Part shown: positions 5,062-15,276 of the stretch, piece by piece
Position numbering within the stretch: position 1 is the stretch's first letter
Layout: each line of letters opens with the position of its first letter
Assembly: GCA_029856435.1 (NCBI GenBank)
Contig: JAHQXB010000149.1
Span: 1-18,719 of the forward strand
Source: Candidatus Jordarchaeia archaeon
GTDB taxonomy: Archaea > Asgardarchaeota > Jordiarchaeia > Jordiarchaeales > Jordiarchaeaceae
Length of the DNA: 18,719 nucleotides
Reading direction: 5' to 3'
Made by a program: the position numbers and the translations under genes
Notes under the pieces: model-generated
What the model saw: only the letters and a program-made list of their open reading frames with translations
The model's database searches: none
What the model was told of the DNA's origin: nothing

Positions 5062-5766
5062 TTATACTTCTTTTCTTGTGTATACTACTATACTTTTTGG
5101 CCAGAGATTATTCCAGAAATTCTCAATTTTTTTGAGTAGCTTGAGACGAAGGGAGAATACGAGTATTTTTTCCCAGAAAGCAGGGATTAAAGCTTTCTGG
5201 TTTTTTAGGCCGGATAGGCATTTTAACATCCAAAAAACGGAGTGGAAGGCATGTTCACGGCACACGTATAATATTTTCAAACCACTTTTTTGCAATTTTT
5301 GTAGTAATTCTTTTTTCGTATAAATCCTTACATGGCCTCCGGGAGTTCTGAAGTACTCATATGAAATTTTGCCGAATAATCTCTCTGTGTAGGGCGTTGG
5401 CACGCTGACCGCCATTTCCTCATGGTTTTTTAGAACTCTCACTAGTTCCCTCATCCCCTTCACATCTTTATACAAGTGTTCTAAGACTTCGGTGCAAATT
5501 ATTTTTGAAAAAGACTCGTCTTTAAAGGGTAGCTGAAGAACATCTCCAACAATTAGAACCACGTTTCCCTTTAATTCGCCCTTTTGCGCCATAAGATCAA
5601 GGACATATTTCAGCCTCTTTAACTCACTTAGTGAACTATCAACAGCTACAAATTTGGAATCATGCCACTTGCTTCCTTCCATAGTGTGTCGACCGGAGCC
5701 ACACCCAGCATCTAGAACTAGGTCATTTTCCAAAATTTGCAAAAGGTTTAATTTAACGGTAAGCAT
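5062..5766 (-). CDS. Class I SAM-dependent methyltransferase, translationally coupled to the upstream GT4
   Basis: VLDAGCGSGRH, GDVLQLPFKDESF, CTEVLEH and GGHVRIY. Start overlaps the GT4 stop by 14 nt. Confidence 0.87.
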   Translation of the reverse strand: MLTVKLNLLQILENDLVLDAGCGSGRHTMEGSKWHDSKFVAVDSSLSELKRLKYVLDLMAQKGELKGNVVLIVGDVLQLPFKDESFSKIICTEVLEHLYKDVKGMRELVRVLKNHEEMAVSVPTPYTERLFGKISYEYFRTPGGHVRIYTKKELLQKLQKSGLKILYVCREHAFHSVFWMLKCLSGLKNQKALIPAFWEKILVFSLRLKLLKKIENFWNNLWPKSIVVYTRKEV

Positions 5767-7009
5767 CTATGGTCTCCCTGTAAATTTTTAATACTTGTTC
5801 TGCAGCTTTTCTCCAAGTGAAAAGCTTTTCCGCCCTCTCTCTGCCTCTTTTTCCCATGTTTTCCCTCAATTCTCTGTCCTTCAAAATTTTAGCGGCTGCC
5901 TTTGCCAAAGCTCTCCAATCTCCAGGCTCTGCCAGTATTCCCGTCTTACCATCATCTACAACCTGTGGGAGGGCGCCTACTTTGAAAGCCACGACGGGAG
6001 TTCCGCAGGCCATGGCTTCAACTGCTGGGAAGCAGAATCCTTCAAAAAGTGATGGAATTATTATCAGATCCGTTGTTGCGTAGCGCTTGGATAGTTCTTC
6101 GAAGGTTAGAGGACCTGTGAATACTATGTCGTTTTCCAGGCCATATCTTTTTATGAGGGGAGGGGCGATACCCTCCTCCTTCCACTTATCAACTATTGTT
6201 AACTTAACATTCATTCTCAAATTATCTTTGAGATATCTCAAAGTTTTGAGAAGGAGGGGTAGCCCCTTAACCCGATTCTCACAGTTGCCAACAAAGGTTA
6301 CATCATATGCGTCATCAAGCTCTTTCTTGGGTTTTTCTCTTGTGTGGAATAATTCGGTGTCCACGCCATTATGGACTACACTTATTCTTTCTCGGGGTAT
6401 TTTGAAGTGTTTAACTATCTCTCTTGCCGAAAATTCTGAAACCGTTATTATTTTGTTGATCCTCTTTGCCACTATTTTCTGCATAAATTGTGGGTAGAAT
6501 AGTATCTGTTTTAACTTTGTTTTGGCATCCTCAGAAAGATACATTGCAATTTGTCTATCGATTGGCAGAGGGTGATGTATCGTAGCTACTAAGGGAATAT
6601 GTAAAGCTTTCATTAGTAGGAGTCCGTAGCCTAAACATTGATTATCATGAATAATGTCGAACTGGTAATCTTTAATTAATTCTTTTATCTTGAAGAAAGC
6701 TCGAATGCTGAAACTCATTATCTCAGGAAAATTTCCAAATTTTGCAGCCGTATATTCGTAGAAGGTCAAAAGGGATAAGTTTTCTGAGGTAACCCTGTCA
6801 CCATTTAGTTCGTTAAATCTAGGAGTTTTAATTTTGTGTACTGTAGCCCACTTCATTTTATAAGGATAGGGAGGCCCCACAATTACATGAACTTCGTTTC
6901 CCAGCTCCGCTAGTGCTTTTGAAAGGTTGTAGAGATAAACTCCTTGACCGCCACAGTACATGTTTCCTCTGTAGCTTAGCAGGCATATTCTCATTAGTTT
7001 ACCTCCCAT
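5753..7009 (-). CDS. GT4 (GT-B) glycosyltransferase
   Basis: N-terminal LLSYRGNMYCGGQGVY, HDNQCLGYG, TIHHP, HNGVD, RVKG and C-terminal PSLFEGFCFPAVEAMACGTPVV (E-x7-E). Overlaps both neighbours. Confidence 0.9.
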   Translation of the reverse strand: MGGKLMRICLLSYRGNMYCGGQGVYLYNLSKALAELGNEVHVIVGPPYPYKMKWATVHKIKTPRFNELNGDRVTSENLSLLTFYEYTAAKFGNFPEIMSFSIRAFFKIKELIKDYQFDIIHDNQCLGYGLLLMKALHIPLVATIHHPLPIDRQIAMYLSEDAKTKLKQILFYPQFMQKIVAKRINKIITVSEFSAREIVKHFKIPRERISVVHNGVDTELFHTREKPKKELDDAYDVTFVGNCENRVKGLPLLLKTLRYLKDNLRMNVKLTIVDKWKEEGIAPPLIKRYGLENDIVFTGPLTFEELSKRYATTDLIIIPSLFEGFCFPAVEAMACGTPVVAFKVGALPQVVDDGKTGILAEPGDWRALAKAAAKILKDRELRENMGKRGRERAEKLFTWRKAAEQVLKIYRETIDAYR

Positions 7010-10567: not shown

Positions 10568-11833
10568 TTAGCTACTCTTTATAATGTATTCGGCGCATCT
10601 TCTAGCAAAGGCAATGTCCCCTCCAGCGTCTTCCCCGTTACATGTGTCTCCTGCAAGGTATAAACCCTTCATTGTGGCCGAAGCATCTGTTCTTTTATCT
10701 TTGGACTGAGTTGTAATTAGGGCTGCACCGTCTACAATATCAAGTATCATGGGCCTCACACATTTCACATTGCCTTTAGCCTCTGGAAACATTCTGTTAT
10801 ATAGTGTTTTGTATTCTCTGCAATTCCTTTTTTGCGGCTTAAATCTTTATTATGCTAGAAGGCTGTACAGAAAAAACTGTCAACAGCTGCTCTCCTAGCG
10901 GGGCCAAGCTTGGATTCATATTTGAGGTAAAGGTAGCGGTCATCCAAGGATCAGAGCACATGAAGGAATGGAAATCAGAAACCTTTTATGGAATCCGTAG
11001 TCGATAGATATCCCCACACTCAGCAGAATAGTCTTAGATTTAAGTCTCTTGGAAAGTTTTTCTTCTCCACCAAGCTAAACAAGTTTTGAACTGAAAACGC
11101 CACTATGTAACTTTGCTTCTATAGTTTCTTCCCTCGTTAACACTCCTTTGACTTCATTATTCTTCACAATAATTTTTTCCACTTAACCAACCCTCACTTC
11201 TCCATTAGACTCGGTTTCAGTTAGCTTATCTAGTATTGTCTTCCACCCGCCTATACCGTACGCTGCCCCATTACCGTTTTGACAAATACTAGAACTAGAT
11301 TGAAAAGTTCCCCGGTAGATGTCGCCGTCATATCTGCAGCAACCAGAAGTAGTTTGGTTAAAATTTCTTTTAAAAACCATTTAAGATTGCCACTCTTCAT
11401 ATTTTCTTCTGACCATTTCTCAACAGGGGTATCATAATACTCTTCTGACTTGCGTCAACATCTGTGTGAGCGCCGGTCCCAACTCTTCCCTATCCTTTTG
11501 GGTGAATATGGGTGTTGTTGAAAGCTTGTTATTAACAGGCAGGGGTAAATTTGTCCAACTATCTTTATAATACAATTTTTGCATTTCAGGTTCAACAATC
11601 TCCAATTTTTCGCTGATTCACTCGAAACCCTTGGCAGCAGCCTTATCTGCAAGCCTCAAAGCAGGAATACCAAAATCAACAATGTACCCCTTCTTATATT
11701 CGAAGGAATTACCCCTCTCTTCAACTCCAAGTTTCTCTTCCAAAACCAGCGTTTTAAATCCATCCTTCGCAAGGATAGCACCCGCAGACAAACCGGCAAC
11801 GCCGCCGCCTACAATAACCACATCCCAAGCCAT
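10568..11833 (-). pseudogene. Decayed phytoene-desaturase-family FAD-dependent oxidoreductase
   Basis: Intact N-terminal DVVIVGGGVAGLSAGAIL...LEE dinucleotide fold. Hand translation continues past TGA (11620-11618) as ISEKLEIVEPEMQ..., frameshifts to EEYYDTPVEKW..., frameshifts again to YGIGGWKTILDKL...GEVRVG*VEKIIVKNNEVKGV, and ends with GLYLAGD (ORF 10568-10792). Confidence 0.85.
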
Positions 11834-14410: not shown

Positions 14411-14518
14411 GCGGCTGTAGTCTAGCCTGGTTTAGGACCCAGGCCTTCCAAGCCTGTTACCCGGGTTCGAATGAAAAAGGAAGGAAGCTTCTTTCCGAAA
14501 TTCCCGGCAGCCGCACCA
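14411..14518 (+). tRNA. tRNA-Gly(TCC) with a 30-nt intron at 59/60; CCA encoded
   Basis: Acceptor GCGGCTG/CAGCCGC, D-stem GTCT/GGAC, anticodon stem CAGGC/GCCTG with TCC at 14447-14449, T-stem CCGGG/CCCGG. Spliced length is 78 nt. Confidence 0.95.
14472..14501 (+). other. tRNA-Gly intron, position 59/60, strict BHB
   Basis: Outer helix GGG/CCC, central helix TTCG/CGAA, bulges AA^T and AT^T, inner helix GAAA/TTTC. Confidence 0.92.
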
Positions 14519-14663
14519 AACCTACTTTTACTAAGCATAAGAATAGGAGTAAAGACAGAAATGTTTCAAGTAGGGCCTAGATCTGATTGAAAATAAACTG
14601 TTAATGAACTTGTAGAAAAAACAAAAATAGGGATGTTATGTGGTGCCGTCGGCCGGATTTGAA

Positions 14664-14693
14664 GTCGCCTTCTGCCAGGGACTCTGACAGCAT
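14664..14693 (-). other. tRNA-Phe intron 3 (30 nt), position 53/54, relaxed BHB
   Basis: Central helix CGCT/GGCG, bulges GG^A and AC^T, inner stem CTGTCAG/CTGGCAG. Confidence 0.88.
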
Positions 14694-14716
14694 CCAGCGA
14701 CAATCGGATCTTCAGT

Positions 14717-14747
14717 TTCGCCTTCCGTCAGAAAACTCTGACAGCAT
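14717..14747 (-). other. tRNA-Phe intron 2 (31 nt), position 30/31, BHB
   Basis: Outer helix AG/CT, central helix CGTC/GGCG, bulges GG^A and AA^A, inner stem CTGTCAGA/TCTGACGG. Confidence 0.88.
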
Positions 14748-14769
14748 CCGACGCTCTCCCGGGCTAAGC

Positions 14770-14793
14770 TTGTCGCTATTTTTTGCGAATAGT
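14770..14793 (-). other. tRNA-Phe intron 1 (24 nt), position 9/10, relaxed BHB
   Basis: Central helix GTCG (exon 4-7)/CGAC, bulges TA^A and AA^G, inner stem CTATT/AATAG, no outer helix. Confidence 0.85.
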
Positions 14794-14848
14794 TACGACG
14801 GCACCTGGGAGAATTTGGGCGACGGCAAAAACAAGTTTTTTTCACAAC

Positions 14849-14862: not shown

Positions 14863-14877
14863 GTTTTTTTCTTGGGT

Positions 14878-14985
14878 TGGTGGGCGAGGCAGGATTGTCA
14901 GATATAGTGTCCAGAGCACTATACCTTTTGAACCTGCGACCTCCGCCACGTCAAGGCGGTGTCATGGCCGCTAGACTACTCGCCC
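14878..14985 (-). tRNA. tRNA-Val(GAC) with a 32-nt intron at 59/60; CCA encoded
   Basis: Acceptor GGGCGAG/CTCGCCC, anticodon stem CCGCC/GGCGG with loop TTGACGT, T-stem GCAGG/CCTGC. Spliced length is 76 nt. Confidence 0.94.
14895..14926 (-). other. tRNA-Val intron, position 59/60, BHB with a U-C mismatch in the central helix
   Basis: Central helix TTCA/TGAC, bulges AA^A and AA^T, 9-bp inner stem GGTATAGTG/CACTATATC. Confidence 0.9.
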
Positions 14986-15030: not shown

Positions 15031-15139
15031 GTGTGTGGGTTCTTGAAAGAGTAGGGGTTGAAGTGATTGCTGAATTTTTTGATAGGGGGATATATTTGTT
15101 TCGTGTTTTTTGTAGTAGTGTTTGGTGGACTCAGCGGGA

Positions 15140-15166
15140 GTTTCACCTTTTGAGTTTTCTCTTGGT
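15140..15166 (-). other. tRNA-Ala T-loop intron (27 nt), position 59/60, strict BHB
   Basis: Outer helix GGG/CCC, central helix TTCA/TGAA, bulges AA^A and AC^T, inner CC/GG plus a GAG-AAAA-CTC hairpin. Confidence 0.92.
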
Positions 15167-15203
15167 TTTGAACCCGCGGCCTCCTGGCTGCAAACCAGGC
15201 GCT

Positions 15204-15225
15204 CTTGGCTTCCTTTTTTGGGAAT
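15204..15225 (-). other. tRNA-Ala D-arm intron (22 nt), best register 22/23, relaxed BHB
   Basis: Central helix TGGA/GCCA (3 bp plus A-G), bulges AG^A twice, inner stem TTCC/GGAA. A flanking AAGA repeat makes the register formally ambiguous, but the mature sequence is the same. Confidence 0.82.
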
Positions 15226-15276
15226 CTTCCACTGAGCTATGAGCCCACCTATCCATGTTAGAAGTGTTGGGTGGTA

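Follow-up and report, generated by a model that had tools for sequence, protein, structure and literature searches.

The stretch of DNA analyzed here, referred to as the window (18,719 nt; contig JAHQXB010000149.1 of a Candidatus Jordarchaeia archaeon, assembly GCA_029856435.1), belongs to a genome of 3.54 Mb in 181 contigs with 42% G+C and 97.8% completeness, which is a member of the Freyarchaeia lineage. On its minus strand lies a tRNA-Phe(GAA) gene of 162 nt (14641–14802) with an encoded CCA end, which is divided by three introns into four exons, all located exactly in the window sequence (14794–14802, 14748–14769, 14694–14716 and 14641–14663). Intron 1 (14770–14793, 24 nt) interrupts the tRNA at position 9/10 and is unrelated in sequence to the other two introns; its 3′ CGAC pairs with the exon sequence GTCG at positions 4–7. 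Intron 2 (14717–14747, 31 nt) is located at position 30/31 and intron 3 (14664–14693, 30 nt), its paralogue, at position 53/54, and both minus-strand sequences agree letter for letter with those quoted in an earlier note on this DNA. Each of these twin introns consists of a hairpin that is followed by GGCG and two further nucleotides, with the GGCG pairing to exon CGTC (positions 25–28) for intron 2 and to exon CGCT (positions 48–51) for intron 3. The twins are separated by exon 3 (14694–14716), which comprises 23 nt and tRNA positions 31–53. Without the three introns, a 77-nt sequence remains that folds into a cloverleaf and possesses the anticodon GAA, a T-loop and the CCA end.

Neither ARAGORN nor Rfam detected the tRNA-Phe gene at 14641–14802, and on the whole genome Rfam returned only seven tRNA matches at E ≤ 0.001, six of them above the family cut-off. 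We thus rely on a spliced-alignment scan, which employed the compact tRNAs of another Asgard genome as references and in which scores below about 60 are noise, combined with a check of the ARAGORN calls. The two procedures yielded no further tRNA-Phe(GAA) gene in this genome; an ARAGORN 'tRNA-Phe(AAA)' on contig C94 proved to be a mis-call of a different tRNA, and six loci from the scan were dropped as spurious. Since the gene in the window is the only tRNA-Phe(GAA) gene found, the supply of tRNA-Phe depends on the removal of all three introns. The gene is part of a tRNA cluster that further contains tRNA-Gly(TCC) (14411–14518, plus strand) with a 30-nt intron at 59/60, tRNA-Val(GAC) (14877–14985, minus strand) with a 32-nt T-loop intron and a probable tRNA-Ala(TGC) (15124–15245, minus strand) with D-loop and T-loop introns. 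In addition, the first seven nucleotides of the tRNA-Phe acceptor stem (GCCGTCG) recur 17 nt upstream of the gene (14820–14826, minus strand). No BHB could be drawn for this leader repeat, which could provide a competing pairing with the 3′ acceptor strand.

The usual rule for archaeal BHB introns is a central helix of 4 bp flanked by bulges of 3 nt, with the cut after the second bulge nucleotide, and the intron boundaries given above were set by this pairing register. Both introns follow the exon sequence CGYYGG (CGTCGG before intron 2 and CGCTGG before intron 3), and one and the same intron 3′ GGCG is able to form the central helix at either site with the exon tetramer YGYY as partner, as the earlier note had read it. 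The tetramer ends 2 nt ahead of the splice site at both introns. In 13 of 13 copies, orthologous as well as paralogous and taken from six genomes and contigs, the exon nucleotides −6 to −3 are paired with nucleotides n−5 to n−2 of the intron (GGCG), and in the alignment of these copies pairing is seen in 100% of the cells for the central helix, in 85% for the intron stem and in 90% for the whole proposed structure. Shifting the 3′ partner by one, two or three columns lowers the paired share of cells to 31–58%. The bulge at the 5′ site consists of the unpaired nucleotides G, G and A in both introns, with the intron hairpin next to it. Because the outer exon–exon helix is weak (2–3 bp by our reading of the pairing), we assign the sites of introns 2 and 3 to the relaxed HBh′ form and not to the strict hBHBh′ form. 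Intron 2 of the related genome G004 carries GACG instead, by which the U.G of its own central helix becomes U-A, a change that we read as visible site-specific tuning.

The genome harbors two EndA paralogues (tRNA_int_endo, PF01974) with open frames of 220 and 205 aa. This pair is consistent with a splicing endonuclease of the (alpha-beta)2 type, and the relaxed HBh′ sites fit the presence of the two paralogues. Introns 2 and 3 are predicted to be spliced from the pre-tRNA. A pre-tRNA fold in which intron 2 pairs with intron 3 was set aside with no conclusion drawn from it, as it is isoenergetic with the local hairpins in the source genome, G000 (−59.9 versus −59.7 kcal/mol), and does not represent the minimum in its relative G001.

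Introns 2 and 3 begin with the same 13-mer and agree at 25 of 31 positions when aligned with one gap of 1 nt, in line with what had been noted before. The two differences within the stem preserve base pairing: intron 2 has U.G at pair 5-22/21 and U-A at pair 7-20/19, and intron 3 shows the reverse, with U-A at the former and U.G at the latter. Within a set of 40 introns drawn from about 20 tRNA genes of the source genome, which is a sample and not a complete census, introns 2 and 3 are the top-scoring of 780 pairs with an identity of 0.81 (median 0.46, 99th percentile 0.63), and none of 20,000 shuffles reached their likeness. These values identify the two introns as homologous copies inside one gene, and this part of the earlier proposal of an intragenic transposition holds. 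Neither blastn-short nor mismatch scans revealed a third copy in the 3.5-Mb genome, so that the only two copies found both reside in tRNA-Phe; on contig C65, a stretch that agrees with intron 2 at 16/17 positions is part of a long open reading frame and was discarded as a chance match. Among two-copy direct repeats with a spacing of 20–140 nt genome-wide, the Phe pair is likewise the only one in a tRNA-like context.

To follow the introns through the relatives of the source genome, we used exon 3 of tRNA-Phe as the search pattern for the locus, which is syntenic among the members of the genus. These relatives include the complete chromosome of Candidatus Freyarchaeota SRVP19_Freyarchaeia-1 (G005), a Freyarchaeota MAG (G001) and a Jordarchaeia MAG (G003). 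With the sister family f2 as the root, RpoB sequences fall into two clades, of which clade A comprises G000, G001, G003 and G004 with near-identical RpoB and clade B comprises G002 and G005; a metagenome contig, L040, probably belongs to clade B as well because its flanks are 83–86% identical to G005. Introns 2 and 3 are found together at the same positions in the four species-level genomes G001, G003, G004 and G005 and in two independent metagenome contigs, L040 and L041, and this shared architecture shows that the duplication is not an artefact of assembly. The tRNA-Phe gene of clade A carries introns 1, 2 and 3, and that of G005 (C1:~1547660–1547845, locus L005) and L040 (~5640–5810) carries four introns at 9/10, 30/31, 53/54 and 59/60. 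In G002 the locus is missing since the contig ends there. The 59/60 intron is common to G005, L040 and a metagenomic lineage, termed lineage X (L039, L042 and L043), and is absent from clade A. Lineage X contains only intron 2 and the 59/60 intron and is devoid of introns 1 and 3. Intron 2 is hence present in every lineage of the genus examined. The leader repeat GCCGTCG is kept in clades A and B, not in lineage X.

In a rooted Sir2 tree, lineage X stands beside clade B with 100/99 support; RpbG and a neighboring protein of 412 aa offered no detectable f2 homologue for rooting. Lineage X, which has intron 2 alone of the twins, would mark intron 3 as the derived one, and this claim was dropped after the Sir2 tree because the position of lineage X beside clade B makes a loss in this lineage equally parsimonious. 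According to the Sir2 tree, lineage X lost introns 1 and 3, and according to the alternative rooting these two introns were gained once in the ancestor of clades A and B, with three events required in each case. The presence and absence of the 30/31 and 53/54 introns mapped in this way is compatible with either intron 2 or intron 3 as the parent copy, loss and gain being equally parsimonious on these trees. Outside the genus, the tRNA-Phe genes of the other Asgard families examined possess only a D-arm intron, or in one case a D-arm and an anticodon-loop intron. Three genomes of family f13 (G041, G021 and G031, loci L006–L008), which are probably Atabeyarchaeia, carry a D-arm intron, a 30/31 intron and, by our reading of the exon–intron pairing, a 53/54 intron in tRNA-Phe, the latter two being mutually unrelated in sequence. 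A tRNA-Phe gene of the sister family f2 was found neither by BLAST nor by pattern search, and the five places considered as candidates all lie in coding sequence.

The comparison of the twins between genomes reveals that, in four of the genomes, the two copies resemble each other more than their orthologues. Within-genome identity of the paralogues amounts to 29/30 in G001, 29/30 in G003, 27/30 in G004 and 25/30 in G005, and the orthologues between these four genomes share 22–28 of 30 positions. Paralogues are more alike than orthologues in these four genomes, not in G000 or L040, where the copies have drifted apart (25/31 and 21/30, respectively); the exchange is thus not constant. G001 and G003 differ at two loop positions, and they do so in the same way in both copies. 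Both copies of G004 share the same three changes, one of which gives a C.A mismatch, and since this mismatch breaks the pairing in both copies, selection on pairing offers no explanation. The alignment of clade A contains five sites with a genome-specific state in both copies (three for G004, one for G001 and one for G003), from which the number of conversions can be taken as a rough minimum, as sequences of 30 nt hold few informative sites and the RpoB tree does not resolve the branching within clade A. The single position-specific site of clade A is the last intron nucleotide, which is A at 30/31 and C at 53/54 and is never exchanged. As the genomes of clade A are near-identical in RpoB, these exchanges are recent. 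A related picture emerges in clade B: intron 2 of G005 matches intron 3 of L040 at 26/30 positions versus 23/29 for intron 2 of L040, and the orthologues of G005 and L040 share 23/29 (intron 2) and 23/30 (intron 3) positions. Judged by few sites, intron 2 of G005 may be a mosaic, as it keeps a clade-specific 5′ base and has an interior like that of L040 intron 3.

A single origin followed by divergence would group the intron 2 copies apart from the intron 3 copies, and the opposite is seen. This is concerted evolution of the twins across the genus, and it calls for repeated exchange at the DNA level. The earlier proposal is modified by this in that homologous copies within the gene stand and a single transposition does not. 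We consider it likely that the locus is explained by one duplicated intron followed by recurrent local DNA exchange. According to this account, one BHB intron of about 30 nt would have given rise to a second copy before the two main clades of the genus diverged, and the copies would later have overwritten each other repeatedly by short-tract, non-reciprocal DNA exchange in both directions. This exchange may represent gene conversion, or else template switching, between two direct repeats of 30 nt with 23 nt between them, with tracts that would end before the 3′ junction so that the nucleotides nearest the 3′ splice site remain site-specific. Both introns would be cut by the two-paralogue endonuclease of the presumed (alpha-beta)2 type and the exons then ligated. 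Conversion as the mechanism and a local, DNA-level origin are what we infer from these patterns. Between 30-nt repeats at a distance of only 23 nt, conversion should face competition from events that delete the intervening exon.

The number of possible targets bears on where the copies come from. We estimate about 100 YGYY sites across the tRNAs of the genome and counted four such positions in the spliced sequence of tRNA-Phe. With so many sites on offer, an intermediate that diffuses freely would seldom end up as close as 23 nt to its origin, and the only two copies found in 3.5 Mb both lie in this gene. The copying mechanism is therefore probably local, and we favor a local DNA-level event also for the first copy, a reverse transcriptase gene not having been found either. 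The earlier note had suggested that the choice of target is set by BHB complementarity. This cannot be distinguished from survivorship, as only spliceable insertions persist, and the CGYYGG before both sites could serve equally as BHB complement or as microhomology for a DNA template switch.

The twins could alternatively result from repeated re-insertion, in which the intron of one site is recopied into the other, for example by reverse splicing, reverse transcription and recombination. Recurrent re-insertion at the same site would yield the same pattern as conversion, and within-genome copies would likewise look young; the GGCG/YGYY pairing suits both sites, with only the four YGYY positions in mature tRNA-Phe, and an excised intron is made beside its own tRNA, which could account for the local distribution. 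A reverse transcriptase gene (RVT_1), however, was not found in the 97.8%-complete genome, and a 2026 preprint by Goswami et al. (10.64898/2026.10.13.758758) describes neither a reverse-transcription nor a mobile-element signature for Asgard intron gains and only three credible RT genes across its genome panel. Re-insertion would further demand a precise removal of the resident copy in every round, and the last intron nucleotide, being site-specific in the four clade A genomes, fits an internal conversion tract better than the replacement of a whole intron. We thus regard repeated re-insertion as quite unlikely, and the reverse splicing of an excised intron with subsequent integration into DNA, which the earlier note had envisaged, finds no support here.

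An equally improbable scenario does without any transposition and assumes unrelated older introns at 30/31 and 53/54, one of which was later overwritten by microhomology-mediated conversion. It draws on the tRNA-Phe of family f13 with its unlike introns at 30/31 and, by the pairing reading, 53/54, and on the GG|A 5′ junction and the GGCGA 3′ end, which are common to both sites and could prime template switching. The restriction of tRNA-Phe introns to the D-arm or anticodon loop in the other Asgard families examined and the one lineage of the genus without a 53/54 intron speak against it. Convergence, by which the likeness would stem only from the demands of the hairpin and the GGCG helix against similar exon motifs, can claim that the 3′ GGCGA and the 5′ junction are under pairing constraint, but it is effectively refuted by unconstrained loop nucleotides that are identical within G001 and within G003 and different between them, by the other 39 sampled BHB introns, which are under the same constraint and show at most 0.72 identity with any partner, and by the non-pairing C.A state in both G004 copies. 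Hardly tenable, too, are an artefact of assembly and a miniature mobile element of hairpin form (MITE or IS200/IS605-type palindromic element) that landed twice: the unit is indeed a short palindrome, though an imperfect one, and occurs as a direct repeat, but independent assemblies agree, including a long-read-validated complete chromosome and JGI metagenome contigs, and the two genome copies, both in tRNA-Phe, do not form a dispersed family.

We compared the duplicated intron and its local exchange to systems already described. In polyploid haloarchaea and methanogens, repeated sequences evolve in concert through gene conversion. The twin introns resemble these cases in that the paralogous copies of one genome are closer to each other than orthologues of different genomes, and they are unlike them in the repeat length of only 30 nt, the distance of 23 nt and the essential exon that the repeats enclose. 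For the Thermoproteales, near-identical BHB introns at differing tRNA positions have been described (Fujishima 2010, Mol Biol Evol 27:2233, as summarized in PMC4090602 and PMC4033280) and read as a gain by copying, the BHB requirement being thought to define the possible targets. Highly similar introns at different tRNA positions are seen here as well, with 25/31 identical positions in the window and up to 29/30 in relatives. In the Thermoproteales, as these summaries present them, the copies are spread across tRNA genes and isotypes, whereas both copies reside 23 nt apart in one gene in our case; concerted evolution, seen here across species, finds no mention in the two summaries. What is new here are hence intragenic copies with concerted evolution, and tRNA-intron copying between genes was already known.

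Closer to the present genome, introns have been reported for 92–95% of the tRNA genes of Freyarchaeia and Atabeyarchaeia, and many of these are non-canonical and occur as multiple introns (Valentin-Alvarado et al. 2024, PMC11291895). The heavily interrupted tRNA genes described in the accessible text of that study represent the same phenomenon in the same lineage, G005 being the Freyarchaeia-1 chromosome. Between-isotype copying, mobile elements and reverse transcription were tested as sources of such introns by Goswami et al. (10.64898/2026.10.13.758758), whose census comprises 1,062 intervening sequences and who arrive at no general gain route; their test of copying needed a family spanning two isotypes, so that within-gene pairs went uncounted. 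In the available portions of neither work (PMC11291895; 10.64898/2026.10.13.758758) did we find a mention of the tRNA-Phe twin pair. The locus thus points to a local DNA-level process outside the scope of the published tests. It offers a clean and datable intron duplication, in which both copies are recognizable, the distribution is genus-wide, a complete reference genome is at hand and the exchange continues, and one intron sequence at two tRNA positions makes a tractable substrate for studying the specificity of the splicing endonuclease. It is also a rare sequence trace of how BHB introns multiply, which would gain in significance if local copying proves to be a common route of gain.

That tRNA introns of intron-rich Asgard archaea commonly arise locally in this manner, by a hairpin copied tens of nucleotides away within the same gene through DNA template switching and then subject to conversion, is a tentative and at present doubtful generalization. 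If true, it would explain the negative between-isotype tests and provide an RT-independent route of intron gain in the closest prokaryotic relatives of eukaryotes. Same-gene intron pairs of the sampled genes show no general excess of likeness over different-gene pairs (Mann–Whitney p=0.57), and we therefore do not claim intragenic copying as the main route of gain.

A further pair of introns in the same genus suggests that the event at tRNA-Phe is not unique. The tRNA-Asp(GTC) gene of the source genome (G000:C115:30609–30779, minus strand; loci L130 and L131) possesses introns at ~45/46 and 53/54 that are 7 nt apart and identical at 20/30 positions, making them the second-best same-gene pair in the sample. 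Across the genus, the tRNA-Asp introns share 20–23 of 30 positions in every comparison, be it orthologous or paralogous, and a run of 14 nt is common to the 45/46 intron of G000 and the 53/54 intron of G005; the tRNA-Asp of G002 lacks the 45/46 intron. This pair probably represents a second, older intragenic intron duplication. As a separate observation, the T-loop intron of tRNA-Val(GAC) in the window and the T-loop intron of a tRNA-Arg on contig C22 share 23/32 positions, the second-best pair overall, and possibly form a family spread between genes.

Apart from the tRNA genes, the window contains an amine-oxidase-like gene (10571–11833, minus strand) with 12 in-frame stops and 55% identity to the protein from lineage X used as query. 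The gene is intact in G001, G003 and G004, where it is 85% identical to the same query, and the version in the window may have decayed into a pseudogene or may be a gene disrupted by frameshifts or inserts. Elsewhere in the source genome, repeat arrays were noticed on contigs C173, C90, C165, C82, C8 and C40: C173 carries a long CRISPR-like array with a repeat of 30 nt and a spacing of 66–68 nt, and several contig ends bear arrays of a different repeat of about 50 nt with the motif TTTTCATCCTTTATC.
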